From an uncultured Candidatus Peribacteria bacterium (GTDB lineage: Bacteria > Patescibacteriota > Gracilibacteria > Peribacterales > Peribacteraceae): a stretch of DNA of 64,000 bases. Shown piece after piece: positions 2,131-54,710 of this stretch. The notes under the pieces were generated by a model. It searched no databases and had not been told where the DNA came from. It was given only the letters and a program-made list of their open reading frames with translations. The stretch lies in assembly GCA_964497975.1 (NCBI GenBank), contig CAZCFO010000003.1, positions 6,620 to 70,619 of the forward strand, given 5' to 3'. The position numbers were made by a program, and so were the translations under genes. Each line of letters opens with the position of its first letter. Within the stretch, counting starts at the first letter, position 1.

Positions 2131-2131
2131 T

Positions 2132-2157
2132 CGAATTTCGAATTACGAATTACGAAT
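2132..2157. repeat. left arm of inverted repeat (CGAATTTCGAATTACGAATTACGAAT) flanking the four-helix-bundle gene
   Basis: Tandem GAATTAC units. The reverse complement matches the right arm at 2544-2569. Confidence 0.7.
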
Positions 2158-2162
2158 TTTTT

Positions 2163-2558
2163 ATGAATACAGCCCTCTCATCACAGAAAATTCGTACAGT
2201 TTTTGATATGCATTCTTGGCAGCAGGCGCATCAATTATTGTTATTGGTCTACAAATACACGGATTCCTTTCCGCCAAAGGAGATATACAAGCTCACGAGT
2301 CAGATACGCAGCGCCGCCGTTTCCATTACTTCAAATATTGCGGAAGGATTTGGCAGAAAGTCTTACAAAGAAAAACTTCAGTTCTATTCCATTGCCATGG
2401 GCTCCCTCATTGAAGTGCAAAACCAGTTATTCATCAGTAAAGGTGTGCAATACCTCTCTCAAGAAGGATTCGATCACATTTACAGGCAAAGCATTCGTGT
2501 TCACAAATTACTGAATGGACTCATGAAGAAAACCAAGACGGTGATTCGTAATTCCTAA
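2163..2558 (+). CDS. four-helix-bundle protein (23S rRNA intervening-sequence protein family)
   Basis: Motifs LTSQIRSAAVSITSNIAEGFGRKSYKEKLQFYSIAMGSLIEVQNQL typical of the family. Start taken at MNTALSS (2163) rather than the ORF-track start. AT-richer than its neighbours. Confidence 0.85.
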   Translation: MNTALSSQKIRTVFDMHSWQQAHQLLLLVYKYTDSFPPKEIYKLTSQIRSAAVSITSNIAEGFGRKSYKEKLQFYSIAMGSLIEVQNQLFISKGVQYLSQEGFDHIYRQSIRVHKLLNGLMKKTKTVIRNS

Positions 2559-8371: not shown

Positions 8372-10198
8372 TCAGACCGAGAGCAGCAGGATCACCCACA
8401 GCACCACGGAGGACTGCAGCAGTCCCGTGGCGATGTGCCGCGGCAGCGTGGGAAGCCGCGATATGCCGTACACGATGAAGTACGCCGCCGGCACCAGCAT
8501 CGCCGTCGAGTAGCGGAAGTCCTGCGACGTGGAGAAAGGCGAGATCCAGCGGAAGGCCATGTGGCCCGCGGCGAACACCGCGAGGCTCGCGAAGAAGGGG
8601 AGTGCGTCGGGCAGCCTCCTGCGGACCGCGTCGACCATGCCCCAGAGGCCCGCCGGCAGCAGCATCAGGGCGAACATCAGGATCCACATGCACAGGATCT
8701 TCAGCGGTTCGCCGAAGTTCCACTCGCCGAAGAAGGCTGAGCGGAAGAGGTACTCCCAGAAGTATTTCCGCCGCGCGCCGTCGTCCCAGGGGTTCGCGTA
8801 CGGATACTGGAGCATGCCCGCCGGGTTGAACGTGACGTAGCTTTCGACGTCGTTGGGGATCGCCAGGGGCCCGTTGAGCGACACGATATTGCCCACCATG
8901 TACCGCTGCACCGACGACGTATCCGTCCGCGTCGAGAGCACCGCCGAGGCGCTGGCCACGATGAGGACGGCCGCGAGCCCGTGCAGCATGCGCTCCTTCC
9001 ACCGGATCTCGCCGCGGATCGCCAGCAGCAGGAGGGCGATCGGGAGCAGGAGGAGGCCGTTGCTCTTCGTCATGACGGCGAGCGCGGCCATGACGGCCAT
9101 CCCGTACCAGAGGGGATGGGAATGTGGACGTTTCCACCAGGCGAAGAGCATCGCCAGGAACACGAAAGCCAGCGCCGTCTCCAGCACGTCGTTATTGATG
9201 AAGGCGACGAGGTACAGAAGCCCGGGAAACGCCGCCATGATGGCCGTATAGTGCAGGCGCTCGGGCCGGTTCGCGTTTCCGGGGAACGCGGCGAAGGCAA
9301 TCCACATGCCCGCCGCGAGAATCACCAGCGACAGCAGGAGCGACTGCACCTGCACGCCGAAGAGCATCGCGCCGCTGCTCCAGGAAAGAAGGATTCCCAG
9401 TTCGTACCACAGCGCCGACACGGCGTAATACAGCGGCGGCTGCCAGTACTCCCATCCCGCGTTGGGGGGCGGCAGGGCCCAGTTGTCCACGAGGTACTGG
9501 ATGTATTCGATGTGCCCGTCCGTGTCGTGTCCCCGCAGCGGAACGGGCGTGAGGAGCATGTACACGAAGCGGAACGCGATGCCTCCCACCGCCAGCGCCA
9601 GGATGCCGATGTCGTCGGACGCCCCGCGCACCGGGCGCATCGCGGCCGATACCGCCCAGAGGATCACCATTCCGAGCAGGGCCATCAGCCCGATGACGAG
9701 GGGGTCATGGGGGGCCGTCTGCACGATGAGCCCCGCGCCGCCTCCGGCATTGGTGGAACGGACCGTCACGGTGTTTTCCCCGGCATGAAGGTACTCTCCC
9801 AGATGCAGGACCTTGTAGCGTCCGTAATCGCAGAAGGGGAGGGCCGCACCGGTCACCGGCTGCCCGTTCACTTCCACCGACTGCAGACAATCGTCGGTCA
9901 CGAACAGGTACGAGCCGGGATGCAGGAATCCCAGCCGCATCGGAAAGCGGATCTCGAAGTTCCCCTGGGGGTCTCCCGGGATCCGCAGCGGCAGGGTGAA
10001 GCGGACCGGGTCCTGGCCGTTCACGGCGTAGGTTCCGGTGCCGAAGTCGGGGGCGATCGCCATCCAGAGCGTCGCGCCCAGCAGCAGCGAGAGCATGGAG
10101 GGAAAGACGATCCGCCGCGCGGTCCGCACGCGGCGAGCCCAGCGTTTTTTTCGCCGCGTCTCGTACGGGGGAGGGAGTGCAACGGGTTTGTGAGGCAT
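8372..10198 (-). CDS. PMT_2/GT39-like membrane glycosyltransferase with N-terminal extracytoplasmic beta-rich domain
   Basis: Start at MPHKPVAL (10198), because the longer ORF overlaps the divergent GT2 gene. Motifs HDTDGHIEYIQYL, WQPPLYY, and many TM helices. Confidence 0.75.
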   Translation of the reverse strand: MPHKPVALPPPYETRRKKRWARRVRTARRIVFPSMLSLLLGATLWMAIAPDFGTGTYAVNGQDPVRFTLPLRIPGDPQGNFEIRFPMRLGFLHPGSYLFVTDDCLQSVEVNGQPVTGAALPFCDYGRYKVLHLGEYLHAGENTVTVRSTNAGGGAGLIVQTAPHDPLVIGLMALLGMVILWAVSAAMRPVRGASDDIGILALAVGGIAFRFVYMLLTPVPLRGHDTDGHIEYIQYLVDNWALPPPNAGWEYWQPPLYYAVSALWYELGILLSWSSGAMLFGVQVQSLLLSLVILAAGMWIAFAAFPGNANRPERLHYTAIMAAFPGLLYLVAFINNDVLETALAFVFLAMLFAWWKRPHSHPLWYGMAVMAALAVMTKSNGLLLLPIALLLLAIRGEIRWKERMLHGLAAVLIVASASAVLSTRTDTSSVQRYMVGNIVSLNGPLAIPNDVESYVTFNPAGMLQYPYANPWDDGARRKYFWEYLFRSAFFGEWNFGEPLKILCMWILMFALMLLPAGLWGMVDAVRRRLPDALPFFASLAVFAAGHMAFRWISPFSTSQDFRYSTAMLVPAAYFIVYGISRLPTLPRHIATGLLQSSVVLWVILLLSV

Positions 10199-23583: not shown

Positions 23584-23669
23584 TGGTGCCCAGGAGAGGA
23601 CTCGAACCTCCACGGCCTTGCGGCCACCAGCCCCTCAAGCTGGCGCGTCTGCCATTTCGCCACCTGGGC
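23584..23669 (-). tRNA. tRNA-Leu (anticodon GAG), CCA encoded
   Basis: Folded by hand. 7-bp acceptor stem GCCCAGG/CCTGGGC, 3-bp D stem with a GG loop, anticodon stem CCAGC/GCTGG with loop TTGAGGG, long variable arm GGCC-GCAA-GGCC, T-loop TTCGAGT, discriminator A plus CCA. Confidence 0.95.
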
Positions 23670-31322: not shown

Positions 31323-33092
31323 ATGAATTCCATCCCCGCCGGAATCGAAACATCATTGCTTGCGGCTGGCTTCACTCCGACCGAAGTCCTGGTGGTGCGG
31401 AAGCTGATGGAAAGCGACGCGCTCACCCTGCGCGAGCTTGCCGCGCGTACGGGAAAGGGGATCGGCGTGCTCGATCAGGCGGTAAAGAAGCTTCTCCGCA
31501 AGAACATTCTTCGCCGGGACACCATTAATGATTCCGCAAAGTACACGCTCACTTCCCTCGATCAGGTTTTGCATTGGGTGGAAACCGACATGAACCAAAA
31601 ACGCGAAGTTCTCCAGCGCCAGCATCAGAACTTCGAACAATTCATCCGCACGTTCGAGCAGGATAAAAAGAGGCCCGATATCCAGTACTTTGACGGGCTT
31701 GATGGGCTTGCGACCGCCTATCGGAAACTTCTCGAGCGGGGAAAAGAGATGCTCGCGTACGTTCCGGTCTTTTGCAGCATCGAGGATCACCCGCTGCGCG
31801 ACTTCATGGTGGAATGGTTCCGCATCCGTCGGAATCATGGAGTGTTCTTGCGCGTCATCGCTCACGACACTCCTCTGGGACGCCGGTACGTTTCCCGCGA
31901 TCCGTTCGAATACCGTCAGACGGTTCTGGTGGATGAGAAGACCTACCCCTTTACCTTTGAAAAGATCATCTCGGGGGACACGGTCGCCTGTATTAATTAT
32001 GCCGAAAAACGGGCGTGCCTACTCCGGTATCCGGAGTTGTCCACCATGGAAAAGTCGCTCTTTGAAGGCATTTGGAAGCAGGAACAAAAAAAAGATGTAT
32101 CTATAAAATCCACTGAAGCCATTGTGACAGCAATTAAAGTACCAAATACTGCGACGATACGAGTTCGTGTTCTCTCTGCGCTGCGAGAATTTTTTCTTAG
32201 CAAGAAGAGTGCTGCCATTATTTTGGTAATTATGCTCTTGGCCATAGTTGTAGCATTTGCAGTCCAAGCCTTATCAGAGCCCCATTCTGCAAGTGAAGTT
32301 TCAACAAGGATTTTCAAGTTTATGCTTTCGTTTTCAGCTACTTTCTTATTGTTTATAACAGTTCGCCTAGCTGCTGCCAATAAGTCATTAATAAAGGAAC
32401 TATGGTCGGTATTTAAAATTAAAAAAATTCTGTTAATTGCGGCACTATGTCTTGAACTTTCTTTTGCAATAACATTTGCAATTTATAAATATTCATTAAA
32501 TCAAATAATTGATGAAATCGGAATGAAAACTATGGCAGCAATGGCTACTGCTTCGACGGAAATAAAAACAGAGGATCTAATAAAAATTCAGTCAGCTGAA
32601 GATATGAAAACAGATAGTTATCAAAGCTTATTCCAAAAACTGAATCTAATTCGCACTACAAATCCTCATATAAAATACGTATATATAATGCGGTATTTGC
32701 CTAAAGAAAATGTCTTTGAATTTGTAGTTGATGCTAATTCAAACTTCAATTTGCCTGCGATTGGCCCCGATCTTAATGGAGATGGAATAATCAATCAGGC
32801 AGACGAAAATGTTTTTCCTGGAGTAAAATATCCTGTTGAAGGGAAAATGTTACAAGCTTTGGAAACCCCTTTATATGAATCTGAATTTTTTGCAGATCAG
32901 TGGGGCACTTGGATATCGGCGTATGCCCCACTCAAAAACAATAAAGCGAAGTATGCACTCTTAGGGGCTGATGTTGATATTTCAGATGTTTATGCATCTC
33001 AAAATCGAAAATTTTCGCCATGGTTATGGTTTTCGGGAATCTTTGGCCTTTTGGCTTTATTGTCCATTTTAATCAAGAGTATAAAGCCCTAG
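31323..33092 (+). CDS. membrane-tethered TrmB-family HTH regulator with extracytoplasmic Cache/PDC-like sensor domain
   Basis: N-terminus LLAAGFTPTEVLVVRKLMESDALTLRELAARTGKGIGVLDQAVKKLLRKNIL (TrmB-type wHTH), followed by 3 TM helices. The sensor region YVYIMRYL...EFVVDANS...DLNGDGII...WGTWISAYAPLKN...ALLGADVDI is homologous to the HK sensor at 35408-36874. There is a final TM helix. Confidence 0.75.
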   Translation: MNSIPAGIETSLLAAGFTPTEVLVVRKLMESDALTLRELAARTGKGIGVLDQAVKKLLRKNILRRDTINDSAKYTLTSLDQVLHWVETDMNQKREVLQRQHQNFEQFIRTFEQDKKRPDIQYFDGLDGLATAYRKLLERGKEMLAYVPVFCSIEDHPLRDFMVEWFRIRRNHGVFLRVIAHDTPLGRRYVSRDPFEYRQTVLVDEKTYPFTFEKIISGDTVACINYAEKRACLLRYPELSTMEKSLFEGIWKQEQKKDVSIKSTEAIVTAIKVPNTATIRVRVLSALREFFLSKKSAAIILVIMLLAIVVAFAVQALSEPHSASEVSTRIFKFMLSFSATFLLFITVRLAAANKSLIKELWSVFKIKKILLIAALCLELSFAITFAIYKYSLNQIIDEIGMKTMAAMATASTEIKTEDLIKIQSAEDMKTDSYQSLFQKLNLIRTTNPHIKYVYIMRYLPKENVFEFVVDANSNFNLPAIGPDLNGDGIINQADENVFPGVKYPVEGKMLQALETPLYESEFFADQWGTWISAYAPLKNNKAKYALLGADVDISDVYASQNRKFSPWLWFSGIFGLLALLSILIKSIKP

Positions 33093-33140
33093 CAGTGAAC
33101 ATTACATTTGCTCTTTAAATAGAGTAAAGTTCTTTTTATT

Positions 33141-33491
33141 ATGAAAAATTTTGTATGGGCAATGGCCATTATGGGGGCTGTCGCAATCGCTGCCTTGGCA
33201 GATTCCGTTAGTACCCTTTGGGCAAACGGTAATAATAGATTTTCAATTTATTTATTGTTAATTTTTCTTTTAGGCCCTCTAGTCTTCATAAGCTTTGGTT
33301 TAGTAACGACAAAAGTAGGTTTGGCCATAACATCGGGGGTGGTGAATTCCTTATTGGTACTAACATCTATTTCTATCGGACTTTTTGTTTTTGGAGAGTG
33401 GAATAAAGTTTCCTTTCTTCAGTATGTCGGAATGGCTTTTGCAATTACGGGAATAATTTTTATGTTGTTTTTTCCGAAGGTAAATTCCTAG
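33141..33491 (+). CDS. SMR/DMT-superfamily 4-TM protein (EamA-half / ArnE-like)
   Basis: 116 aa with four hydrophobic helices. Low-GC codon usage. Confidence 0.7.
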   Translation: MKNFVWAMAIMGAVAIAALADSVSTLWANGNNRFSIYLLLIFLLGPLVFISFGLVTTKVGLAITSGVVNSLLVLTSISIGLFVFGEWNKVSFLQYVGMAFAITGIIFMLFFPKVNS

Positions 33492-33494
33492 GCT

Positions 33495-35360
33495 ATGCCT
33501 AAAGCTTTTGAAAAAAAACTTCTTCATGTATCAAATGTTTCGATTAAGAGGCAAGCTGCATCAGAAAAAGAGGGCAGCTATTTGGAAATATTAAGCTTTG
33601 AACGAATTAGCAAAAAAACAAATGCTTTTGCAGATCACATTCAAAAAAATCTTGAAAAAATCACAAATGTGCTTTTGGAATATGAAAGTTATGAAGTAGT
33701 AATGGACGAGATTTCACGTTCGCTAGATTTGTTACAAAATTTACAGGAAAACAGGACCTACTTCTCCTTAAGGATTGGGAATATTGTCGCCTTTTTACCT
33801 CGTAACCAGCCTCTTTATGCATTTACATGTTTTGTGATCGTCCCATCACTGATGGCAACAGAAGTACACTTTAGAATTCCTCACAGCATGAAAAAGTTTT
33901 TTCCTCAATTATTAGACATTCTTGAGGTAAGTGACTTTTTTCCAAATGTAAAAATTTCTAAAAAGGAACGAGTGGAATTTTTAAGTGAGCATTCCTCATT
34001 AAGATTTGATCCACTCACAAATCGGGCATTGCCTTTAACTGAGGCGGTAATATTTACTGGAGCCTCACATCATGCTGAAAAATTACGTTTAGTTTTTGAT
34101 AAGCGAACCCTGTTTATTACAAATGGAGCAGGCCACAACCCTTTAATTGTCAGTTGCGATGCAGATATGCAAGCGGCAGTTACAGCGGCAGTTAGTCTGC
34201 AATTTTATAATCAAGGCCAGGATTGCGCTGCTCCGAATGCAGTTTTAGTTCATTCTAAAATATTTAATAAATTTGCAAAATTGCTCAGGGAAAAAATTAG
34301 TCATCTTAAGGTTGGGCCATATAAAGATCGATCTTGTCGGATAGGACCCATCAGTGACTCTAGGGATTTGGTTAGAATACAAACCATATTAGTGGATAAT
34401 GAGAAATGGTTGGACCCAAATACTCCTGGCGTAATTTCAACAGCTCAATCCCTTGTAATGCCGACTATTATTAATAAGCCCCTACAGGAAGGAGGTAATT
34501 TTACAGAAGTATTTGCACCAATACTTTTTTTGCAAAAATATAACGACGACCCAAGTCTATCTTTGTATTTTGAGGATAAAAGCTATGCACGAAATGCAAT
34601 GTACGTAACGCTTTATGGTAGCAGTTCATATGTAGAATCCTTGGTGGGTAAAACAGTGCATGGAAAAATACTCCACGATACGGATTCCATATTAATTAAT
34701 AAGCATTTGCACGAAAAAGGTATTGAAAGAGGGACTAAGCCGTATGGTGGATATGGTATTGGCGCTTCAAGTCTTAGTATTAATTCGAAAACAATTTGCA
34801 TGCCGACCCTTCCTCAGCGCGATATCTATGAGCATCTTGCAAAACCGTTTTTAAATGAGAAAGAAAGGAGTATTCAGCAAGAAATGATCAGTCGTGCTTC
34901 CATCCTTCTCCCGAAAGACATAAAAAAATTCTTGGCATTTAGATCAATTGAGGACAAGGAAAAACAGCAAATATCCTTATTAGATTCTTACATTGACTTG
35001 CAGGGAATGAAAGTGGACGGAAAAAGATATGTAAAACTACAACCTGAAAATAGTTATACGCTTCTTGATAAGCCAAACATTCCATATGCAGCTCATTTGC
35101 ATCCAAAGGACCTACAAAATATTAGATTACTAAGAGAGTTTTTAAAAATTGATAAGAAAATTTCTCCCGAAGAGTTTTCAAGGTTTTTATACGATTTACC
35201 CAAGGGACGGGAGGAAGCTTCGGAAGCAAATCACACAGCACAAGCGAACTTCTTTACACACATCTATTATTTGGTATTTGGGAAATCAACAGGTCCTCGA
35301 CTTGCTAGATTTCTTTTGGAAGTTGATAAGCAAAAGATATGTGAACTGTTGGATGTATAA
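33495..35360 (+). CDS. aldehyde-dehydrogenase-superfamily domain fused to a class-I lysyl-tRNA-synthetase-like C-terminal domain
   Basis: ALDH core: FTGASHHAEKL, LFITNGAGHNPLIV (the ELGGK position lacks Glu), YNQGQDCAAPNAVLVH (catalytic Cys motif GQ.C.A), LKVGPY. Tail: SPEEFSRFLYDL...FFTHIYYLVFGKSTGPRLARFLLEVDKQKICELL resembles the LysRS-I C-terminus (..Y..L.GK.RGPRLASFL..), compared from memory. Confidence 0.7.
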   Translation: MPKAFEKKLLHVSNVSIKRQAASEKEGSYLEILSFERISKKTNAFADHIQKNLEKITNVLLEYESYEVVMDEISRSLDLLQNLQENRTYFSLRIGNIVAFLPRNQPLYAFTCFVIVPSLMATEVHFRIPHSMKKFFPQLLDILEVSDFFPNVKISKKERVEFLSEHSSLRFDPLTNRALPLTEAVIFTGASHHAEKLRLVFDKRTLFITNGAGHNPLIVSCDADMQAAVTAAVSLQFYNQGQDCAAPNAVLVHSKIFNKFAKLLREKISHLKVGPYKDRSCRIGPISDSRDLVRIQTILVDNEKWLDPNTPGVISTAQSLVMPTIINKPLQEGGNFTEVFAPILFLQKYNDDPSLSLYFEDKSYARNAMYVTLYGSSSYVESLVGKTVHGKILHDTDSILINKHLHEKGIERGTKPYGGYGIGASSLSINSKTICMPTLPQRDIYEHLAKPFLNEKERSIQQEMISRASILLPKDIKKFLAFRSIEDKEKQQISLLDSYIDLQGMKVDGKRYVKLQPENSYTLLDKPNIPYAAHLHPKDLQNIRLLREFLKIDKKISPEEFSRFLYDLPKGREEASEANHTAQANFFTHIYYLVFGKSTGPRLARFLLEVDKQKICELLDV

Positions 35361-35407
35361 GCAAATTAACTCTTTATTGAAAGAGCCATTTGTGCTAGAA
35401 TATTAAG

Positions 35408-36874
35408 ATGGATTCTCAGTCCAAGACAAAAAAGAAGTGGCAGTCAACATTAATACAAGGGTTCATTGTATTAGTAGCTATTCTAATAACAGCAGGGGTT
35501 TCTTGGTTTTTGTATGAGCATACCGTTAATCTTTTAACTGATAACTTGCGTCAGCGACTTCTTTCTATAGGAACCACTCAAGTAGCTAATATTGATCCGT
35601 CAGATGTAGAAAAATTGCAAAAAGAAGATGATTGGAAACGACCCGAGTGGGCCAGAGTTGTAGGGCAATTAAAGAGGGCAAAAAATAACAACTCAAATAT
35701 TGTTTTTATGTACATTTTTAGAAAGAAAGGAAATGATGCCACGCAAATGGAATTTGTAGCAGATGCAGAGTCAATTAATCCATATGCCAACATTGATACA
35801 GACTCTTCAAATGACGTTGATGCTAATGGAGATGGAAAAATTGAACCGGATGGAGCTGACCAATTACAATGGCCCGGGCAAGATTATCCAGAGCCACCGG
35901 ACGAAGCCTTTCTGGCATATGACGGACCTCTTACCAATAAGGATCTCTATGCTGATGCCTATGGGCAAGTACTCACAGGTTATGCACCCATAAAAAATGG
36001 TAGTGGGAAAGTAATCGCAATCCTAGGTACTGATATAAAAGCCAATGACTTCTTTACGGTTACACGACAAACACTTTATCCATTTTTAGCTTTCATTATT
36101 TTGCTTATAGGGATTTTGCTCATCCTTGCCAGTAGCCTTATTAAAATTTGGTCCAAGCAAGTGGATTTGATTGTTGAACTAGATCGTCAGAAAGACTCTG
36201 TTTTGCATATGGTTGCCCATCAATTTAAAGGGCCTGTTTCCACCATTAACTTCACTACGGAGCTGCTTCTCGATGGCACTTATGGGAAGCTTTCCCCTGA
36301 GCAGCAGGAGAACGTAAATGTTATTCGTACGGCTTCGCAAAAGATGGGATCGCAATCAGAAATGGTCTTGGATGCTGCAAAAATTACGCTCGGGAAGCTG
36401 CCGCTTGAACCCAAGCCCGTTGAGCTTGATCAGCTCTTCAAGGAAGTAGTGAAGGAGGCCGAGACTCACGCAAAGGAACGCAAAGTGAATTTGAAGGTTG
36501 TTCTTCCCAACGAACCGCTTCCCACAGCGACTCTCGATCGGAGATATACACAGCTGGCCTTCGATAACCTTCTCAGTAATGCCATTAAATACACCGCTCT
36601 GAAAGCGGAGGGCGGCAGTGCTGAATTCATCGTCCAAATGCAGGGTAAGACGTTACGTGCTTCCGTGAAGGACACCGGCATCGGTATCCCCAAGGCAGAA
36701 CAGGACAATATCTTCAAGGAACTCTATCGTGCCTCGAATGCTGGCAAGGATGGCAATGGGCTTGGTTTGCACGTCACCAAGGGCGCCATCGAAGCCCAGG
36801 GCGGCAAGCTGTGGTTTGAAAGCGAAGAAGGGAAGGGAACGACGTTCTTTGTGGAGCTTCCCTTGAATTCTTAA
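35408..36874 (+). CDS. sensor histidine kinase with Cache/PDC-like periplasmic domain
   Basis: TM1, sensor (IVFMYIFRKK...EFVADAES...DANGDGKI...YGQVLTGYAPIKN...AILGTDIKA), TM2, H-box HMVAHQFKGPV, N box LLSNAIKYT, G boxes DTGIGIP and GNGLGLHV. Confidence 0.88.
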   Translation: MDSQSKTKKKWQSTLIQGFIVLVAILITAGVSWFLYEHTVNLLTDNLRQRLLSIGTTQVANIDPSDVEKLQKEDDWKRPEWARVVGQLKRAKNNNSNIVFMYIFRKKGNDATQMEFVADAESINPYANIDTDSSNDVDANGDGKIEPDGADQLQWPGQDYPEPPDEAFLAYDGPLTNKDLYADAYGQVLTGYAPIKNGSGKVIAILGTDIKANDFFTVTRQTLYPFLAFIILLIGILLILASSLIKIWSKQVDLIVELDRQKDSVLHMVAHQFKGPVSTINFTTELLLDGTYGKLSPEQQENVNVIRTASQKMGSQSEMVLDAAKITLGKLPLEPKPVELDQLFKEVVKEAETHAKERKVNLKVVLPNEPLPTATLDRRYTQLAFDNLLSNAIKYTALKAEGGSAEFIVQMQGKTLRASVKDTGIGIPKAEQDNIFKELYRASNAGKDGNGLGLHVTKGAIEAQGGKLWFESEEGKGTTFFVELPLNS

Positions 36875-37308
36875 AAAGTCGCCTCCGCGTACCAGTGAGA
36901 GTTTTCTCGATTTTCAACTCCTAACATGTGAATTTTGTCCTTCAGGAAAAAATAAAGCATGGGAGTATCGTTATCAGGCGATGGCTCAGGCTCAAGATGC
37001 ACACTTGGGCTATTAGGGTCAGGATCGAGATTAAAAAGAAGATCGACCTGTCCATTTTGGTCAGCGGTGGCTGGTGTATTTAAAGCAGGAATGTCGCACC
37101 AAGTTGATGGAGCTGTATTTTCAATCGTTGCTTCATAATCTCCATCTCTTACAGTTTTGTCAGAGCAACTTAAGCCCGCTCTCTGGATCACTGCTCCAGT
37201 CATTTTCTGGCCCATAAAAACAGAAACGACAAGATTATGCTTAGGGGAGTAAGAAAAAATTTGGCAGCCTGCTAAGATAAAACATCCGATAAAGAAAATC
37301 TTTTTCAT
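36871..37308 (-). CDS. lipoprotein, hypothetical (candidate immunity protein)
   Basis: MKKIFFIGCFILAGC lipobox. 145 aa. ATGA overlap with the stop of the 1327-aa gene. Low GC. Confidence 0.7.
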   Translation of the reverse strand: MKKIFFIGCFILAGCQIFSYSPKHNLVVSVFMGQKMTGAVIQRAGLSCSDKTVRDGDYEATIENTAPSTWCDIPALNTPATADQNGQVDLLFNLDPDPNSPSVHLEPEPSPDNDTPMLYFFLKDKIHMLGVENRENSHWYAEATF

Positions 37309-40300
37309 GATTCTATACGGTAAATAGTGGTGTAAGTTGCCTTCAAATTCAACGAATTAAAGGACATGAAATGATATCGTGGGGTATTATCTGGCTGTTT
37401 CCACAGAGTGGGTTGAATGCCTGCATTTTTTTCCTCAGCGGTTAATTCTCTTGGGCTGTGAGTGAATTCATCAATAACACCACGTGTAATTTCTAAATGA
37501 GTATTTATATCTCCAGGAAAATCTTTAATTTCCATCCAATTTTCATTATTTCCGAAATTCGTATCAAGAACCCACAAACCATCGCTTTGAATTTTTGTAA
37601 TCAACATTGTGTGCGGAATGCTCCCATATCCCATTTGGACAACATCTCCGACTTTCACATCAGAGCTATTATTAATCATTTCCTCAAACGTTTTGTCGCC
37701 TCGAATAGATGCAACAACAGTTACGTTGGCAGTAGTACTCGAAAATGAATTCCATTCATACGAGCCTATCCCTTTAATGTCGCTGGTTTTATTTGTCGGC
37801 AGTTTATTAAGAGTAATTCCACTCGATTGTAGCCAGTTTTGAATCCAAGTTTTGCACTGCTCCAGTCCAGTTCCGTGAAGTTCTCCAATAAAGGGATATG
37901 TGCCATTATTTTGATATTTAAGGGTAGGAATAATGGAATTCATCACATACGTCAGGATTTTCTGATTTGTTTCCGGCAGTTCATTAAAGTTGTCGATGCT
38001 TAAAACCTCTTGGGCAATTTTCTTTTGTGCGTCAGTAAGATCATCCCAGTTGCGCGGAATGCCACTTGTGTTGGCAGCTCTCTCCACCACCTTCTGCACT
38101 CCTACCTGCAGAGCCGGCTTCAGAGAATTGAAAAACGAGGTGAATGAGGACGACACTCCCGTTACAAGCTGCTCCGTTCCTTGCATTTTGGCAGAAATCC
38201 ATTTGGATACTTCGGAAAGGTCTCTTGCGATGAGCGTAATGGGATTGAACGTCGAAGGAGGAATGCCCCCTGCCGTCGCAACGAGATAGGCCGATTGCCG
38301 CAGGGTGAATGTGCCGTCGGAATTGCGCTGCAGAATGAGTCCCTCACCCATGGAATTTCTATAGGCGATGGCGGTGCCCTCCTGAGTGACAAATTCCTTG
38401 GGAGGCTCCACTTTCGAAGCGGCCACAACGGCGCCGGAGAACTTCGTAAACTCGGCCACCGTCCACCCCGCCCGGTCCGGTGCGCCGGCGACGGCAACGA
38501 AGACTTTATCGAGTGCAAGCTGCTGTTCAGTCGTCCGTTGCGCAATGGGAATGTTCTGGACGTGCAGCAGCCCCGCTGCCGCCAAGGCATCGTGCAACGC
38601 CTGGTCCTGCTCCTGCGAGCGCACGCTCGCGGCATGCTCGGCGTTGAACACGGCGATGCTGTCGGCGCAGATGCGCTCGTACTCCTGTTCGTAAATCTCT
38701 TCGCACCTCGCCTTGCACATCCGGTAGATCTCGTCCCGCGACGGGAGATTGGGGATGGAGGCCTGCGCATTGTGTCCAGTGGGGTCCTTGATGGGGGAGG
38801 TGTTGCGCGGCAGCACCACGCCGTTCATTTCCATCAGCACCGTGTTCCAGGTGTCCTGCACCGCGACGAGATAGGCGTCCCACATGCGCCCTTTCGCGAC
38901 TTCAATGGCATTGCGCAGGTCTGACTGGCCCTGGGGGCTCAGCTGGTCATAAGCGGCGCTGCCCATCTGCCACCGCGCGATATCGGTACTGGACGAATTG
39001 ATCGTGACGACCCCCGGCCCGCGGTCAAAGAGGTTCAATTTCTCGATGATGCCCGTTGCGAGGAGGTTCTGCAGCGCGGGGTTCACGTTGCCCATGCCGT
39101 ATTCGCCCTGCCGCGGAACGCTCGTGGGGACGAAAGCCGCTTTCAGATCGACCTGGATGGAATCGCACAGATCGTCCGCGCCGCTCGTGATGGTCAGGAC
39201 GATACTGTCGCCGGCTGCAAGTCCGAAGAGGCGCTGGTCGAGGGGGAGGTTGTCGAAATTGGAAAGAGCCCCGCCGTTGGCGATGGCCTTCCTCCACTGC
39301 TCGCGCATCGTGCCATCCGCCGAGCGGATACTCAGCGCCACCGTTACGCCGTCCCCCACGCGTGCGTCCAGATCGGTGATCGATCCGCGCAGCATCGCGG
39401 TGCCCGAACCGTTGGGGGTGAACAACACCCGGACGTCTTTGTCTGTCGTCGGGTGGACAAGAAGGGTCTGGCCGGCGAGAGGAGCGGCATTGCCGGTTCC
39501 TTCCAGGGCGGCCGGTGCATCGCTGCGGTTGACCGCCACGCTCAGCGGAAGGTCGCGCGTGCCCGCCGGCGGCGCGTAGGCGATCTGCGAGAGATTGAAG
39601 GCGCTCGGCTGGCCGGTGTAGGTATCACCCATTACGTACGCTCCGGCCTTGGTGCGGATATTCCAGTCCCGGGCATCGAGCGGAATCTCCATGACCGATG
39701 TGCCCGCGGCGATATCCAGCGTCACGGGATTTTTCCACGGCCGGATGTATTCGAGCACGTACCCCTCCGCGAAATTCCGCAGGGTGAACCGCTGCTTCTG
39801 CGTGTCGCCATCGGGGTAGATCTCCACGCGCGGCGTGATCCTGGGGATCTCTTTCCCCTGCGTTCCGTCCGGCGACACGCCGCTGAGCGTCCCGATGGGG
39901 GCTAGCTGGGAGAAGGAAAGGGGAGTCGCATTGCCTCCGGTCGTCACCACTTCCGCGCTCCAGGTTCCGATGACGGAATGGGAAAACAGATCACCGGTGG
40001 CGGTCATTGCGGCGGGCATATCCCAGCTTTGCATCTGCCTGTTCACGATCGTCTGGATTGCCGGAAGATCGCCCCGGATGGTTTCGGGAACAACCCATCG
40101 CGGCACCTTGATCACGCGGTCGCCGGCTTCGGGCGTGATCGTCGCGCTTCCAAGAGTGAATGACGCCGTTCCGCTGAAGTACTTCGTCCGCAGGTACAGC
40201 CAGTCCATGTCGCCGGTGATCTCCACGCCCATGGACATCCGCACAAAGGATTCCTTCACCGTCGCCTGAGGGACGAGCGGCGCTTGGGGAGAGAGCAGCT

Positions 40301-41288
40301 CCTGTTGTTTTGCGAGGAACATCTCCACCAGTCCCTCCACTTCCGCATCCAGCGCATCCACGAGCAGCGTTTCGTTCTGCAGCGTCTGCCAGACCGTCCC
40401 CAGTTCTTCCTGCCGTTCCTCGAGAAGGTTTTCCGTTTCCGAGAACGCGGCGAAGACCGCGTCATATGCCGCGCGTGAGGCCTTCACTTCCCCCCGCAGT
40501 CGCTCCACGGCCGCATCCAGGGACGACAGCGCTCTCTCGGCGTCCTGGCGGCGGGTCTGGGCCCCGGCAATGTCGGCCGGCAATACGTTCAGCCGGTCCT
40601 GCAGGCGGGCGAGCTCCGCTTCGTCCGCCGCTTTCGCCGCGTTGACCGCGGTGATCTGCGCAGATACGACCGTGCGCTGCGCCTGCACGCCGTCGATCTG
40701 GGGCTGCAGAATTTTGATCGAGGATTCCAGCGAGGATTTCTTGCTGAGCAATTTCTTGTCTCTGGGACGCTTGGTCAGTTCCTGCGTGACGATTACAAGG
40801 TCTTTCTGCAGCGTCTCCATTTTGGTGAGCATCGGGGCAAGCGTCGTCTGCAATTGCTCGCTTTGCGCGCCAAATGAGGTGAGCTGCGACTGAAATGCGG
40901 TGATTTCCCCCTGCAACGCGGAGACTCTCTGCAGCGCGGAGCCCTGCTCCGCACGCAGGGACGTTTCCTGTCCCTGAAAGGTCTGAACGTTCTGGGTCAA
41001 GGGGGGCCGCTGGTCGAGGGCTCCCTGCAGCTGACTGTTCACGACGTCCCACGCCGAGCGCGCCGCTTCCGTCCCCGCTTGTCTGGCGCCCAAATCCTGC
41101 GTGAGCAGGGAGACGTCGTTTTGCAGGAGGCCCGCGCGGGATGTGACGGTATCCAGGACGGCGTGCTCCTGCTGCCACGCCACTATCTGCGGGTCGGCGA
41201 CCAGGGCGGGAGGAACGCTCACTAGCGCGGGCGTGTCCCGGGTTTCGAGTTGTTCAACGTTCAAGGCTGTGTCGCGGCGGTTGTCCAT
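37305..41288 (-). CDS. 1327-aa protein: N-terminal coiled coil, large central region, C-terminal CHAP/NlpC-P60-like cysteine peptidase domain
   Basis: About 330 aa of Q/L/A/E-rich heptad-like sequence. The C-terminus has GLEQCKTWIQNW (Cys), GSIPHTMLITKI (His) and LWVLDTNF (polar third residue), arranged as in CHAP domains. No classical signal peptide. Confidence 0.85.
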   Translation of the reverse strand: MDNRRDTALNVEQLETRDTPALVSVPPALVADPQIVAWQQEHAVLDTVTSRAGLLQNDVSLLTQDLGARQAGTEAARSAWDVVNSQLQGALDQRPPLTQNVQTFQGQETSLRAEQGSALQRVSALQGEITAFQSQLTSFGAQSEQLQTTLAPMLTKMETLQKDLVIVTQELTKRPRDKKLLSKKSSLESSIKILQPQIDGVQAQRTVVSAQITAVNAAKAADEAELARLQDRLNVLPADIAGAQTRRQDAERALSSLDAAVERLRGEVKASRAAYDAVFAAFSETENLLEERQEELGTVWQTLQNETLLVDALDAEVEGLVEMFLAKQQELLSPQAPLVPQATVKESFVRMSMGVEITGDMDWLYLRTKYFSGTASFTLGSATITPEAGDRVIKVPRWVVPETIRGDLPAIQTIVNRQMQSWDMPAAMTATGDLFSHSVIGTWSAEVVTTGGNATPLSFSQLAPIGTLSGVSPDGTQGKEIPRITPRVEIYPDGDTQKQRFTLRNFAEGYVLEYIRPWKNPVTLDIAAGTSVMEIPLDARDWNIRTKAGAYVMGDTYTGQPSAFNLSQIAYAPPAGTRDLPLSVAVNRSDAPAALEGTGNAAPLAGQTLLVHPTTDKDVRVLFTPNGSGTAMLRGSITDLDARVGDGVTVALSIRSADGTMREQWRKAIANGGALSNFDNLPLDQRLFGLAAGDSIVLTITSGADDLCDSIQVDLKAAFVPTSVPRQGEYGMGNVNPALQNLLATGIIEKLNLFDRGPGVVTINSSSTDIARWQMGSAAYDQLSPQGQSDLRNAIEVAKGRMWDAYLVAVQDTWNTVLMEMNGVVLPRNTSPIKDPTGHNAQASIPNLPSRDEIYRMCKARCEEIYEQEYERICADSIAVFNAEHAASVRSQEQDQALHDALAAAGLLHVQNIPIAQRTTEQQLALDKVFVAVAGAPDRAGWTVAEFTKFSGAVVAASKVEPPKEFVTQEGTAIAYRNSMGEGLILQRNSDGTFTLRQSAYLVATAGGIPPSTFNPITLIARDLSEVSKWISAKMQGTEQLVTGVSSSFTSFFNSLKPALQVGVQKVVERAANTSGIPRNWDDLTDAQKKIAQEVLSIDNFNELPETNQKILTYVMNSIIPTLKYQNNGTYPFIGELHGTGLEQCKTWIQNWLQSSGITLNKLPTNKTSDIKGIGSYEWNSFSSTTANVTVVASIRGDKTFEEMINNSSDVKVGDVVQMGYGSIPHTMLITKIQSDGLWVLDTNFGNNENWMEIKDFPGDINTHLEITRGVIDEFTHSPRELTAEEKNAGIQPTLWKQPDNTPRYHFMSFNSLNLKATYTTIYRIES

Positions 41289-44847: not shown

Positions 44848-44881
44848 GCCACGACGTGAATCGTGAATCATGAATCGTGAA

Positions 44882-44909
44882 GCGGTCCGCCTCGGCGGGC
44901 CGCTTTTTT
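44882..44909 (+). terminator. rho-independent terminator
   Basis: GCGGTCCGCC-tc-GGCGGGCCGC followed by T6. Preceded by direct units GTGAATCGTGAATCATGAATCGTGAA. Confidence 0.65.
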
Positions 44910-44913
44910 CGAT

Positions 44914-44993
44914 GTCATCCCGCGTGCCCGTCCGTAGCTCGGAAGAGCGAAGGCGGGAGTAGTTCGTGGCGGCCCACGAACGTAACGAGGGAC
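44914..44993 (+). repeat. GTAG-box hairpin element 7 (forward, with internal insertion)
   Basis: GTCATCCCG [34-nt insert] GAGTAG TTCGTGG CGGC CCACGAA CGTAACGAGGGAC. Confidence 0.65.
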
Positions 44994-45096
44994 AAACAGC
45001 GGCCCGGCTTCCCCCGTACCAGTCGCTGCGCTCCGGTACAGGACATGGCGCTACTCGGACACGTTCAAACAGCGGGGCAGCGCTGTCTGGAGTCTC

Positions 45097-45441
45097 CTAC
45101 TCCTTCTTCAATTTCGGGCGGACGAAGACTTCCCTCGCATCATCCTGATGCGTGAGGGCGACATAACTGGTGCCATTCAGGCCTATGTGCTTGACCTGGA
45201 TTTCACCTTCCTTGGCTTCGCGACTGACAAACGTTTTTGTGGTTCCGTCCGTGTAATCGATCCGGACGGATTTTTCTCCGATAGTGAAGCCGGAGACCGG
45301 AGTTGCGTTGGTCAACTCCGAATGCTGTCTCCAGGTTGTGATCGCCGCGAGGACGACCACGACAATAAGGGCCAGGATAACCGCATACTCGACGGCCGTC
45401 GGGCCGTCGTCGCGCTTCAAAAAAGAAAGAACTCGTTTCAT
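45097..45441 (-). CDS. Flp/Fap-type pilin-like protein with extended C-terminal domain
   Basis: MKRVLSFLKRDDG/PTAVEYAVILALIVVVVLAAI matches the Flp prepilin motif G/xxxxEY plus a hydrophobic helix. GGAG lies 8 nt upstream. About 75 extra C-terminal residues. Confidence 0.7.
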   Translation of the reverse strand: MKRVLSFLKRDDGPTAVEYAVILALIVVVVLAAITTWRQHSELTNATPVSGFTIGEKSVRIDYTDGTTKTFVSREAKEGEIQVKHIGLNGTSYVALTHQDDAREVFVRPKLKKE

Positions 45442-45715
45442 GGAAAAAACTCCGGTTGTTGCTGCCCCACATCGTCCTCCTTCCTTCGCTCTGCCCAGCG
45501 ACGGTCGAAAGACGATCGTGGGACGTTGCGGGTCCGCGGCCGGCAAACGGCCAGCCACGGTTTCCTCGGAATGAGGACGAGTGGGTCAAGGCGGTGGATT
45601 TTCAAAAAACAGTGGGTCATTCTGACCGCATGCCAACAAAATTCAATAGCAGATGAGCTCCGCACCGCTTTGTATCACGAAACGGCGAGGGCAGCGCCGC
45701 TTGGGGGAGTCGAGG

Positions 45716-45913
45716 TCACTTTTTGGTGACCCCGTGGATGACGGGATGCGCCGGACGCTGAGGCGGTTTTCTCAATTCAGAGAAAATCACCCAGGCGAAG
45801 ACGACGATGAGAATCATCGACGCATACACATTGCATTCCGTTGCACTCAGACTTTCCAGGAAAGCCTGAATCCGTGCGTGAATTCTTTTCACGAACTCGA
45901 CAATGTTTTTCAC
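45716..45913 (-). CDS. small single-TM protein (non-canonical Flp-like core), GTG start
   Basis: VKNIVEFVKRIHARIQAFLESLSATECNVYASMILIVVFAWVIF... GTGA overlap with the stop of the preceding 38-aa ORF. Confidence 0.35.
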   Translation of the reverse strand: MKNIVEFVKRIHARIQAFLESLSATECNVYASMILIVVFAWVIFSELRKPPQRPAHPVIHGVTKK

Positions 45914-46026
45914 AGGAATTTCTCCAAAACAATAACCAGAAGCAGAAGAAAAATGACCAGCAGGCCGAGCATGAATGCTTTCGCGTGCTCCACGCTGCCG
46001 CGACGCCGTCGGAAGCAATATTTCAT
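45910..46026 (-). CDS. 38-aa hydrophobic peptide
   Basis: My translation is MKYCFRRRRGSVEHAKAFMLGLLVIFLLLLVIVLEKFL. GGAG lies 5 nt upstream of the ATG at 46026. Confidence 0.35.
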   Translation of the reverse strand: MKYCFRRRRGSVEHAKAFMLGLLVIFLLLLVIVLEKFL

Positions 46027-46138
46027 ACGGACTCCTTATCTGTGCTGCCCCCACGATCCTCCTTCCTGGACGGAAACCGCACCGAGCGGTCTCACGGGAA
46101 AAGAGGAATAGTAGGGGAAGGGGAATGACAAAGAGCGG

Positions 46139-46390
46139 TCAGCCGAGCGGTGCCATCAGGCAGACGTTGCTTTCGCCGGTCTCGGGATCGATGTGGGTGC
46201 CGCACATGGGCAGGGAGATGGAGCGGTTCGCGCGCTTTTCCAAAACCCTCCGGAATTTTTTCTCATCCACTTCCCTCATTTTCTGAAGGTTCCGGCAGGA
46301 CTTTCCCATTTTCTTCCGTGCAGGGGCCACGGCCAATGTCGGAACAATGGGCTCGTCGTACAAGCCGTCGATTTCCACCTGGGAAGGCAC
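46139..46390 (-). CDS. small hypothetical protein
   Basis: 83 codons from GTG 46390, which sits 6 nt after a TTGACT-N17-TTAAAT promoter. An internal ATG (MGKSC) is an alternative start. Confidence 0.45.
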   Translation of the reverse strand: MPSQVEIDGLYDEPIVPTLAVAPARKKMGKSCRNLQKMREVDEKKFRRVLEKRANRSISLPMCGTHIDPETGESNVCLMAPLG

Positions 46391-46396
46391 GAAGCA

Positions 46397-46425
46397 ATTT
46401 AAAAATATTTATGACTTATAGTCAA
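46397..46425 (-). promoter_or_regulatory. sigma70-type promoter TTGACT-N17-TTAAAT
   Basis: Read on the minus strand directly after the terminator at 46446-46476. Confidence 0.5.
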
Positions 46426-46445
46426 TGTTCGAATTTCCGCACACG

Positions 46446-46476
46446 CAAAAGGCTGGGGGGCGACGGAATCCCAGCC
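46446..46476 (-). terminator. rho-independent terminator
   Basis: On the minus strand: GGCTGGG-attccgtcgc-CCCCAGCC followed by TTTTG. Confidence 0.65.
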
Positions 46477-46501
46477 ATGTTCGACGTGAGTCGAAAGATT
46501 T

Positions 46502-46618
46502 TTACATCAGGCCGAGAGCGTGCAGGACGCACCCGGCCAACATGAGGCCGCCCGCGAGAGCGGCGAGGCAATCGCGCCATGACATGTTTTCGACGACGGG
46601 GAACTGATTCTGGCTCAT
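46502..46618 (-). CDS. 38-aa membrane peptide
   Basis: My translation is MSQNQFPVVENMSWRDCLAALAGGLMLAGCVLHALGLM. AAGGAG lies 8 nt upstream. Directly preceded by leader copy A. Confidence 0.45.
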   Translation of the reverse strand: MSQNQFPVVENMSWRDCLAALAGGLMLAGCVLHALGLM

Positions 46619-54179: not shown

Positions 54180-54368
54180 ATGCTGACGTCATCGAATGCG
54201 CGCCGGGCGCTCAGTCATTTCAGTCTGGCGACATTCCTGTTGTCGATATTTCTCGGCTCCCTCGCAGCGGCATTGCCGGTGGTCAGCGCCCCTGGGTTGA
54301 CAGCCTACGTTCCTGCCTCGCCGCCGACCGCCTGCAACGGTTCGCCGGCTGCCATCGATGTTGCATGA
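54180..54368 (+). pseudogene. 62-aa ORF homologous only to the N-terminal signal region of the downstream surface protein
   Basis: MLTSSNARRALSHFSLATFLLSIFLGSLAAALPVVS compared with MSSSFSRVRSALSTFSTTALVLNIAVGSLVAALPVFS. Confidence 0.35.
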
Positions 54369-54710
54369 ATCGCATACAAAAGAGCTGTGATTGCACGTGA
54401 AGTAGGATTTGCACAGAATCCCGTTCTTTCGCATAACGAAAAAAATCCTGCAGATCTCATCACTCTGTCGGACCAATCTTTCAATTTTCAGCCTTTCAGA
54501 GCTCTCTTTGGCGTATGTTGCCTCATCGATATCTGCGGCTGGAGTGGATTCCTGCTTTCGCTCTTGCCTATGACATCCGGCTTTGAATGTGTGGGCAACA
54601 ATGGTCCAGATCGCGGTAGAGATTCTCGCTTTTGATCTATTATATGGCTCCGGAAGCCTTGACTTGCTAAATGCCATCAATATGATTTGGATGATTTCCC
54701 CCTCCTCTTT

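Follow-up and report, generated by a model that had tools for sequence, protein, structure and literature searches.

The low-GC block and its borders

The window analysed here is a stretch of 64,000 nt from an uncultured Candidatus Peribacteria bacterium (contig CAZCFO010000003.1 of assembly GCA_964497975.1), and all coordinates refer to it; Peribacteria are bacteria of the Candidate Phyla Radiation (CPR). It contains a block of low-GC DNA at positions 32040–38300 that begins inside the gene of a helix-turn-helix (HTH) regulator with its own sensor part, continues through the genes of a small membrane protein, an aldehyde dehydrogenase (ALDH) superfamily enzyme, a histidine kinase and a predicted lipoprotein, and ends inside the gene of a giant protein of 1327 aa. 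The GC content of the block is 39.3%, and that of the remainder of the window 61.2%, so the estimate of the first-pass annotation, about 33–40% against about 60% on both sides, holds, and its hand counts are exact (19/60 G+C at 33501–33560 and 36/60 at 39001–39060). A step of more than 15 points had been set beforehand as the test, and the computed step is 22 points. In 46 control windows of 6.26 kb placed outside the block the GC content is 0.611 ± 0.016 with a minimum of 0.574, which gives the block a z-score of -13.9. Tetranucleotide usage, a check proposed with the original description, departs most from that of the remaining window at 32–36 kb (distance 0.84, against 0.11–0.24 elsewhere).

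Maximum likelihood change points are found at 32050 or 32083 on the left side and at 38250 on the right side. As had been proposed, the left one is located in the regulator gene (31323..33092, + strand, 589 aa) at a domain boundary and the right one in the giant gene (37305..41288, - strand, 1327 aa), in the linker before its C-terminal tip, and both reading frames are open throughout. The intermediate patch noticed in the catalytic half of the kinase is also real (GC 0.517 at 36250–36870). The block is therefore better described as two AT-rich module sets, 32058–36142 and 36871–38066, with the kinase transmitter between them, and the window has three in-frame junctions rather than two, the third being located within the kinase gene (36128–36176).

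Inside the block the GC content of third codon positions (GC3) drops most, GC1 drops also, and the amino-acid usage is shifted (FYMINK 0.32 vs 0.21, GARP 0.20 vs 0.29); the shift in composition acts at the DNA level. Neighbouring genes have high GC3 values, 0.83 for a DNA ligase, 0.85 for p314 and 0.90 for an SLH/Calx-beta protein. The third positions of the island show A3 ~ T3 and C3 ~ G3 and no strand asymmetry, and thus no strand-specific damage signature, so that strand-biased deamination could be rejected as a cause. A replication terminus or origin was rejected likewise, since the cumulative skew has no sustained inflection and similar troughs are present in loci L009, L017 and L021, in whose 10-kb flanks no ligase could be detected.

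The regulator gene

The GC-rich half of the regulator, aa 1–245 (31323..32057, + strand, GC3 0.69), consists of a winged HTH of the MarR/TrmB type and a conserved cytoplasmic domain. Its Pfam matches are weak (MarR, HVO_A0114), and its homologues have TrmB, MarR and HTH_24 matches. This half is 61–73% identical to the nearest relatives, and across 31 loci its identity follows that of the ligase (Spearman 0.43). The in-frame left junction (32050..32083, + strand) is placed where the conserved cytoplasmic domain ends, a point marked by the nearly invariant W251, and nucleotide similarity to all relatives ends at +712 to +772 of the gene. The AT-rich half, aa 246–589 (32058..33092, + strand, GC3 0.28), comprises a linker, transmembrane (TM) segments and one extracytoplasmic Cache/PDC-like sensor.

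The relatives nearest in the N-terminal half are also the ones whose last sensor repeat matches the AT-rich half, at 42–54% identity; these proteins have 745–1013 aa with 2–3 sensor repeats. Across the family conservation is lower in the sensor domains (43%) than in the HTH half (61%), and a GC3 drop of more than 0.15 within the gene is found in 40 of 56 regulator genes, at positions that vary somewhat, the drop in the window being the earliest. Nearly all regulator homologues that can be named are from Candidatus Peribacteria or Peregrinibacteria.

The regulator of the window has one sensor domain, and its closest relatives P0004, P0005 and P0003 have two (~765 aa) or three (~1000 aa). It keeps the TM segments but is without the first sensor repeat of these relatives, which is the repeat most like the sensor of the neighbouring kinase (45%). 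The remaining regulator sensor and the kinase sensor are 31% identical. Both (32500–33000 and 35408–36142) have in their Cache fold a conserved acidic loop, D-x-N-x-D-G-x-I followed by W/F-P-G-x-x-Y, that resembles a calcium-binding loop, and the shared motif also yields the short direct DNA repeats D2 and D3.

Cargo genes

Two genes are located between regulator and kinase. The first (33141..33491, + strand, GC3 0.35) encodes a small multi-pass membrane protein of 116 aa with no Pfam match; homologues (family 10) are found in 11 loci, always in low-GC DNA, and the copy in locus L087 is 70% identical. The second (33495..35360, + strand, GC3 0.30) encodes an ALDH-superfamily enzyme of 621 aa with a C-terminal extension (Pfam Aldedh, 4.8e-23). 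The best matches of this enzyme in the PDB are succinate-semialdehyde and gamma-aminobutyraldehyde dehydrogenases, and the catalytic Cys aligns. The enzyme co-occurs with the kinase sensor in the window (W in comparisons) and in loci L025, L039, L084 and L087. No peptide precursor or processing enzyme was found in the zone, and any chemical link between the ALDH and the sensor is putative.

The low-GC cargo of other lineages includes EamA and ABC-2 transporters, methyltransferases of the Methyltransf_25 and NNMT/PNMT/TEMT families, arginase-family enzymes and AdoMetDC-like proteins (AdoMetDC-type decarboxylase). A Peribacteria AdoMetDC homologue is an ornithine decarboxylase that is clustered with homospermidine synthase (PMC10407285). 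The commonest low-GC cargo gene, present in 26 loci and absent from this window, encodes a SET-domain (lysine-methyltransferase-like) protein of 180 aa, for instance at 2320–2874 in L037, and has a GC content about 0.19 under that of its flank.

The histidine kinase

The kinase gene (35408–36874) encodes 488 aa. Its sensor half, aa 1–245 (35408..36142, + strand, GC3 0.31), has a single Cache/PDC domain between two TM segments. The AlphaFold model (predicted local distance difference test, pLDDT, 92.3) shows a single Cache/PDC domain, and Foldseek matches it at a probability of ~1.0 to KinD, Tlp3, CitA, WalK and McpU; for the first four the E-values start at 6e-4, and the target-normalised TM-scores reach 0.55–0.68. 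The polyamine and gamma-aminobutyric acid (GABA) chemoreceptors McpU and PctC are among the matches. The modelled PDC fold between two TM helices and homologues with Pfam Cache models place the sensor in the Cache/PDC class. The transmitter half, aa 256–488 (36173..36874, + strand, GC3 0.56), matches HisKA (4.2e-10, 40 bits) and HATPase_c (1.4e-23, 83.8 bits) above the Pfam cut-offs. The junction between them (36128..36176, + strand) is in frame, between TM2 and the dimerization and histidine phosphotransfer (DHp, HisKA) helix, and the GC content rises here from ~0.38 to ~0.50.

The two halves have different relatives. One set of homologues is 70–76% identical in the sensor and 44–52% in the transmitter, and another set (P0166, P0217, P0214, P0216) is 71–82% identical in the transmitter and 27–35% in the sensor (52% for P0166). 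Among 119 kinase homologues the identities of sensor and transmitter are anticorrelated (r = -0.54), and sliding identity profiles cross at aa 240–256, which is the junction right after TM2. Across 31 loci neither half follows the ligase (Spearman -0.13 for the sensor and 0.09 for the transmitter), nor do they follow each other (0.03). Going by these comparisons the kinase is a chimera, and it would be the clearest case of in-frame module exchange in the block. The contrast in composition is general in the lineage, with a GC3 of 0.31 in sensors vs 0.53 in transmitters; the transmitter is the higher one in 50 of 52 kinases (Wilcoxon p = 7e-10), with 0.33 vs 0.89 in a single gene of L012 as the extreme. 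The transmitter responds to the GC3 of the host with a slope of 0.69, and the sensor with a slope of 0.21.

A scan of about 46 of the 54 long window ORFs gave no Response_reg match, nor did the annotated loci of relatives, and the kinase appears to be an orphan adjoining a one-component regulator with a related sensor. The Logan gene caller predicts a kinase of 221 aa instead of 488 aa (6407–7072 in L002, corresponding to 36209–36874 in the window), with a start near the GC step, indicating that composition steps within reading frames truncate automatic gene calls.

The giant protein and the lipoprotein

On the minus strand, the body of the giant protein (38421..41288, GC3 0.78–0.81) consists of an N-terminal coiled coil with SMC-like matches and a large middle part that is 48% identical to the orthologue P0118 and 30–51% to L007. 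It is followed by a linker, aa 957–1074 (38067..38420, - strand, GC3 0.60), which holds the right junction at 38250 and, alone among the parts of the protein, fails to align with P0118, and by the tip, aa 1075–1327 (37305..38066, - strand, GC3 0.36), a divergent, putatively papain-like module with weak similarity to CHAP and Amidase_6. Compared with P0118 the AT-rich tip is the more conserved part (55% identity, body 48%).

An exhaustive search with the tip alone found 48 homologues among 1.84 billion representatives. The long matches always end at the C-terminus of proteins of 860–1900 aa, the others being short proteins or fragments, and most of the 48 share only the tip with the window protein, as a modular domain on unrelated bodies. 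Cys86, His167, Asp183 and Asn185 are invariant. The Pfam assignment is weak, with 22 bits for Amidase_6 (cutoff 23.2), matched by 10 of 15 members, and CHAP matched by 3 of 15. The tip model has a pLDDT of 87.5, and its Foldseek matches, the best being CHAP enzymes, are not significant (best E = 0.05, TM-score at most 0.30); PDB sequence searches with the tip, by single sequence and by profile, gave no match. A word-index search with the whole protein of 1327 aa recovered nothing but the query, presumably because words from the coiled coil crowded out other candidates.

The lipoprotein gene (36871..37308, - strand, 145 aa, GC3 0.37) has a start codon that overlaps the stop of the giant gene by 4 nt, and the predicted N-terminus, MKKIFFIGCFILAGC, ends with a lipobox-type L-A-G-C. 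Among the loci the sole homologue of the lipoprotein (32%) is located directly after the sole homologue of the tip (L028, 5566..9324 followed by 9324..9851), making the lipoprotein a candidate partner or immunity protein of the tip; the co-inheritance of tip and downstream gene is thus seen in two cases only, the window and L028. Throughout the lineage the last 250 codons of the giant genes have a GC3 of 0.42 vs 0.62 in the middle, with a drop of more than 0.15 in 21 of 33, and this holds across unrelated families of giant proteins. In L028 (5566–9851), and also in L009, L017 and L021, the giant protein with its low-GC tip and the partner gene are located upstream of the regulator, indicating that the two AT-rich sets can be arranged differently around the regulator gene.

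Comparison among Peribacteria

A scan of species-representative genomes yielded 77 loci in Peribacteria relatives. The DNA ligase is located 2–10 kb upstream in most of them, and the recurrent order is ligase, p160, p314, regulator, variable small genes or cargo, kinase, one or more small minus-strand genes, the giant protein on the minus strand, and the SLH/Calx protein. The full order is kept in the closest relatives (L004–L006 and the contig of P0005). Most of the 77 species have a GC trough at this ligase-linked locus, and the contigs of close relatives show the same trough including the bump over the kinase transmitter. Cargo content differs between lineages at the same site and between conserved flanks, as in flexible islands.

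When the loci are aligned on the regulator start, the mean GC content is 0.54 upstream, 0.46 at +1 kb, 0.40–0.43 at +1.5 to +5 kb and 0.55 at +10 kb. The lowest 2-kb stretch downstream has a GC content of 0.357 ± 0.036 and shows no relation to the GC content of the flanks, which ranges from 0.40 to 0.66 (r = 0.03, n = 36). As a control, the lowest 2-kb stretch upstream has a GC content of 0.49 and follows the flank (r = 0.91, against -0.10 downstream); in 26 of 28 loci the downstream value is the lower one.

The nearest relatives differ along the block. For 100-aa pieces of the flanks and of the N-terminal half of the regulator they are L003, L004, L010 and L011 (60–80% identity), for the membrane protein, the ALDH and the kinase sensor L025, L039, L045 and L078 (59–78%), whose regulator N-terminal halves are only 50–57% identical, and for the kinase transmitter L007, L080 and L032 (65–80%). 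The middle of the giant protein is nearest to L007, and the tip and lipoprotein to L028. L087 shares the low-GC membrane protein (70%), ALDH (52%) and kinase sensor (75%), although its ligase (67%), regulator N-terminal half (63%) and transmitter (52%) are farther from those of the window than the ones of L004, which does not have this cassette. L084, which has no regulator gene, carries the low-GC ALDH and sensor (74%) on a GC-rich transmitter of 45% identity, joined at the same boundary. No closer relative was found in the JGI metagenome contigs, the best match there being 66%, and no description of this feature was found in the Peribacteria genome paper or in the literature searched.

Age, selection and mobility

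The island DNA is at most about 75% identical to the locus of any relative. By the Nei-Gojobori method the island genes have pS values of 0.77–0.81 in comparison with L087 and L084, which is saturation, and pN values of 0.17–0.32. Saturated synonymous sites indicate that the GC contrast is old and maintained and not the trace of a recent arrival, and the low pN relative to pS that the island genes are functional and constrained. The AT-rich state has thus outlasted a full synonymous turnover in hosts whose other genes have GC3 values above 0.8. Between the window and L087 the dN of the kinase sensor is the lowest (0.19), followed by the regulator N-terminal half (0.33) and the transmitter (0.37).

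None of the six ORFs has an integrase or transposase Pfam match, and flanking repeats of at least 16 nt are not found at the borders beyond what is expected by chance. A blastn search of the whole island against phages and plasmids gave no match, nor did scans of viral contigs for the tip, the ALDH and the regulator family, and no near-identical copy of the island was found among 5.8 billion proteins or in the contig collections. Rfam has no match over 30–40 kb. The sole tRNA in the window, a tRNA-Leu(GAG) at 23584–23669 (- strand), is 86–99% identical in many related loci and located about 8 kb from the island, and is hence not the insertion site.

A probable flexible zone of AT-rich specificity modules

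With a probability of roughly 70%, we interpret the block as the copy, in this genome, of a flexible module zone with a conserved position that is found across the class Peribacteria. The AT-rich DNA downstream of the ligase encodes the parts that determine specificity, at a GC content of about 36% whatever the GC content of the host. These are the Cache/PDC sensors of the regulator and the kinase, the cargo between them, and the tip of the giant protein with the lipoprotein gene, and in-frame fusions at domain boundaries connect the AT-rich modules with the GC-rich HTH domain, transmitter and giant body. The discordant halves of the kinase, and an ALDH-plus-sensor cassette discordant with its flanks, point to modules that are reassorted among Peribacteria lineages. 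Whole specificity cassettes would be exchanged, or sorted as alleles, by recombination in or beside the conserved GC-rich parts, much as in the agr and comQXP pherotype loci and the tips of polymorphic toxins. Such a swap would change what is sensed, what is produced or exported and which effector tip is displayed, and leave the DNA-binding and phosphotransfer domains and the body of the surface protein untouched. AT-richness might be upheld by a local regime, either residence in a pool of divergent, poorly recombining alleles beyond the reach of whatever raises GC in other DNA, or repeated replacement out of a pool of this kind; a simple lag after one transfer does not explain it.

Several points weigh against this interpretation. 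No relative exceeds about 73% protein identity, the cases found in several samples are 100% identical, and with island nucleotide identities of at most 75% no recent transfer has been caught; the discordant similarities could come from ancient sorting of alleles or paralogues and not from lateral exchange. In this genome neither the sensor half of the regulator nor the tip of the giant protein is discordant. The giant protein also has a middle part that is GC-rich and yet poorly conserved, so that GC content is not a simple mirror of conservation, and the GC3 slope of 0.21 of the sensors on the host means that the modules are not fully independent of it. A functional link between cargo enzymes and sensors is only presumed, no response regulator being present in the ORFs scanned, and the force that maintains AT-richness is so far to be sought among three candidates, which are taken below in the order in which we rank them.

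Alternative explanations

The first candidate, tentative but possible, is that the modules are old divergent alleles under diversifying or frequency-dependent selection. Alleles that are unlike cannot recombine homologously and would escape the recombination-linked enrichment in GC, by GC-biased gene conversion (gBGC) or selection, and settle at an AT-biased equilibrium, and the conserved parts would recombine and remain GC-rich. Recombining genes are reported to be GC-richer in bacteria. A trough of constant GC content in flanks that span 26 points would fit, as would the intermediate GC3 of the conserved segments beside the zone (0.69 in the regulator N-terminal half and 0.56 in the transmitter, vs 0.83–0.90 in the flanks), the steeper response of the transmitter than of the sensor to host GC3 (0.69 and 0.21), and A3 ~ T3 without a strand-specific damage signature. 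Against it, the GC-rich middle of the giant protein has diverged to the same extent as the AT-rich parts, and gBGC is not known from CPR bacteria.

The second candidate, which we consider doubtful, is import of the modules over and over again from a reservoir of AT-rich DNA, for example in low-GC Peregrinibacteria or in a mobile element not yet seen, which would leave them no time to ameliorate. A cassette distribution discordant with the flanks would be expected from this, and hosts of lower GC content carry the cassette at an even lower GC3 (0.19 for the ALDH of L025). However, the lack of near-identical copies in the protein and contig collections, and in phages and plasmids, argues against such a source, and many independent in-frame insertions would be needed at the same domain boundary in partners that are only 45–52% identical.

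A more far-reaching proposal, which is speculative and on balance unlikely, combines two parts, signal cassettes and balancing selection, and makes the AT-rich zone a specificity locus, comparable to a supergene, in a CPR lineage of episymbionts. The cassette would then encode a private small-molecule signal, probably amine-derived, its exporter and the matching Cache sensors of the kinase and the membrane-bound transcription factor, adjoined by a matched pair of effector tip and immunity protein. Long-term balancing selection would preserve divergent cassettes unable to recombine with one another, so that the cassette halves of the genes reach an AT-biased equilibrium (about 36% GC in every host) and the conserved halves are driven GC-rich by recombination-linked forces. 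If true, these genes would be a natural within-gene experiment on the determinants of GC content in bacteria.

The third candidate for the maintaining force, which is improbable, is selection for AT-rich DNA itself, for example because a nucleoid-associated or silencing protein, or the HTH regulator, binds there and makes expression conditional. The zone does always begin inside or beside the gene of a DNA-binding regulator, and its composition is kept in a narrow range. Promoter-like sites in the zone are however not in excess (10 found vs 13.6 expected), and the same is true for terminator-like sites; no repeated operator-like motif was found in the zone and no silencer homologue was identified.

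Drift in situ, by relaxed constraint or decay toward an AT-biased mutational equilibrium, is very improbable. The lower conservation of sensors than of HTH halves in the family (43% vs 61%) would agree with it, as would a trough with the same GC content whatever the host, but the ORFs are all intact with pN far below pS, and conservation extends to the kinase motifs, to the catalytic Cys in the ALDH and to Cys and His in the tip. Within the giant protein the AT-rich tip is moreover better conserved than the GC-rich body, and between the window and L087 or L084 no segment is more conserved than the AT-rich kinase sensor.

The first-pass annotation had read the block as a foreign cassette that entered resident genes by in-frame recombination; taken literally this would be a single, recent event involving about 6 kb and two genes. 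In-frame module swapping is retained, since kinase sensor and transmitter have different nearest relatives, but a single recent import is hardly credible, even with the sharp step of 22 points, reading frames open over both borders, and a cassette of membrane protein, ALDH and sensor that is absent in the closest loci L003 and L004 and present in more distant relatives. The trough with its intragenic borders is found at the same locus in most relatives, the block is made up of two or more module sets whose nearest relatives differ, comparison with every known copy shows saturation at synonymous sites, and the borders are without mobility genes, att repeats and tRNA. A foreign origin finds no support in the taxonomy either, since those relatives of the island genes that can be named are themselves Peribacteria or Peregrinibacteria. 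When the halves of the junction-spanning proteins were searched separately, as had been suggested, the low-GC parts of both the regulator and the giant protein shared their nearest relatives with the high-GC parts.

An assembly chimera, in which contigs of a low-GC and a high-GC organism were joined, could be suspected of a genome derived from a metagenome but has a negligible probability, because the sequence is identical over all junctions in two per-run assemblies and in the source contig of 215 kb, all three junctions are in frame at domain boundaries, and more than 30 metagenome-assembled genomes (MAGs) of unrelated projects show the same architecture. The block is not an assembly chimera, and the comparative evidence is the strongest argument for this. 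The per-run assemblies are the separate Logan assemblies of SRR14271331 and SRR14271332, whose contigs SRR14271331_98525 (L001) and SRR14271332_5075 (L002) match the window at 100% identity over 2.9 kb and 16 kb and together cover every junction; the locus of a relative is likewise 100% identical in three other runs. Some locus-bearing contigs are found in MAGs that do not fit, with L025, L063 and L083 labelled Gammaproteobacteria and L039 labelled Saccharibacteria, and proteins of Peribacteria type are listed under Uhrbacteria (P0168) and Planctomycetota (P0199). Such labels of unrelated phyla are probably due to mis-binning, to which the mixed composition of the contigs has perhaps contributed.

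Relation to known systems

The feature combines traits of flexible islands and pherotype loci and is a variant of those. Replacement-type flexible islands include the O-antigen and capsule loci and the hypervariable regions of Salinibacter ruber and SAR11. The zone resembles them in its fixed site, conserved flanks, variable content, lower GC content and absence of integrase, tRNA and att sites (for an example of such islands see PMC6060240). It differs in that its borders fall inside ORFs, at domain boundaries and in three gene families, that it contains sensors, small-molecule enzymes and an effector tip instead of glycosylation genes, and that its design is conserved across a lineage of class level, the comparison here being between species only. 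A classical integrative island would share the deviating composition and tetranucleotide usage (0.84 vs ~0.17), but here there is no integrase, direct repeat or adjoining tRNA, and the zone is at the same site in the relatives.

The Bacillus subtilis comQXP genes form a pherotype locus. In systems of the agr and comQXP kind the hypervariable segment covers the genes for signal production and the N-terminal sensor half of the kinase, and the transmitter is conserved. The hypervariable region of Staphylococcus aureus agr runs through agrB, agrD and agrC (PMC12312760). The zone is similar in that the variable block covers the kinase sensor, with a conserved transmitter and a border within the ORF. 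In contrast to these loci it has no peptide precursor or processing enzyme, the cargo being genes of amine and aldehyde metabolism and exporters, it includes a second receptor, the HTH regulator, with the same type of sensor, it shows a strong GC contrast, and no adjacent response regulator was seen; a role of the zone in signalling is putative.

In polymorphic toxins such as Rhs, with its core and tip, and CdiA-CT/CdiI, the Rhs tips and immunity genes are AT-rich compared with the core. The giant protein resembles them by its AT-rich C-terminal module on a long GC-rich body, by the occurrence of the same tip on unrelated bodies, and by a small gene directly downstream that is co-inherited with the tip, toxicity and neutralisation being putative here. 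Unlike in these toxins, no Rhs/YD or filamentous-haemagglutinin repeats, demarcation motif or orphan tip/immunity pairs were found, the tip is weakly CHAP/Amidase_6-like, and compared with its closest orthologue (P0118) it appears to be vertically inherited.

What looked like a foreign insertion is in this interpretation a lineage-wide rule in a major uncultured group, in which Peribacteria keep ligand-binding domains, small-molecule enzymes and a surface tip in AT-rich DNA spliced to GC-rich domains, with modules that seem to be reshuffled. This gives a concrete list of candidate genes for host interaction and signalling in organisms so far uncultured, and a practical caution for binning and gene calling. 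Single ORFs with a GC3 of ~0.3 beside 0.6–0.9 despite synonymous saturation, the low value being the same in hosts of 40–66% GC, would also be an unusually clean system for testing whether mutation bias, or biased gene conversion and selection, sets the GC content of bacteria.

Other features of the window

A four-helix-bundle protein of 147 aa, similar to bAvd and the 23S rRNA intervening sequence protein, is encoded at 2115–2558 (+ strand) in a local GC dip (GC3 0.48) adjoining dprA (1030–2130). A diversity-generating retroelement was suspected here but is not evident, since no reverse transcriptase and no pair of template and variable repeats was found within 6 kb of 2115–2558. Short ORFs without Pfam match are located at 44877–46545 and 54189–54680, with GC3 values of 0.42–0.59 in regions of 0.53–0.57 GC, and the latter patch adjoins the gene of a surface protein of 1211 aa with SpaA, DUF4215 and GEVED domains (54687–58322). 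These milder dips may be smaller versions of the same phenomenon.

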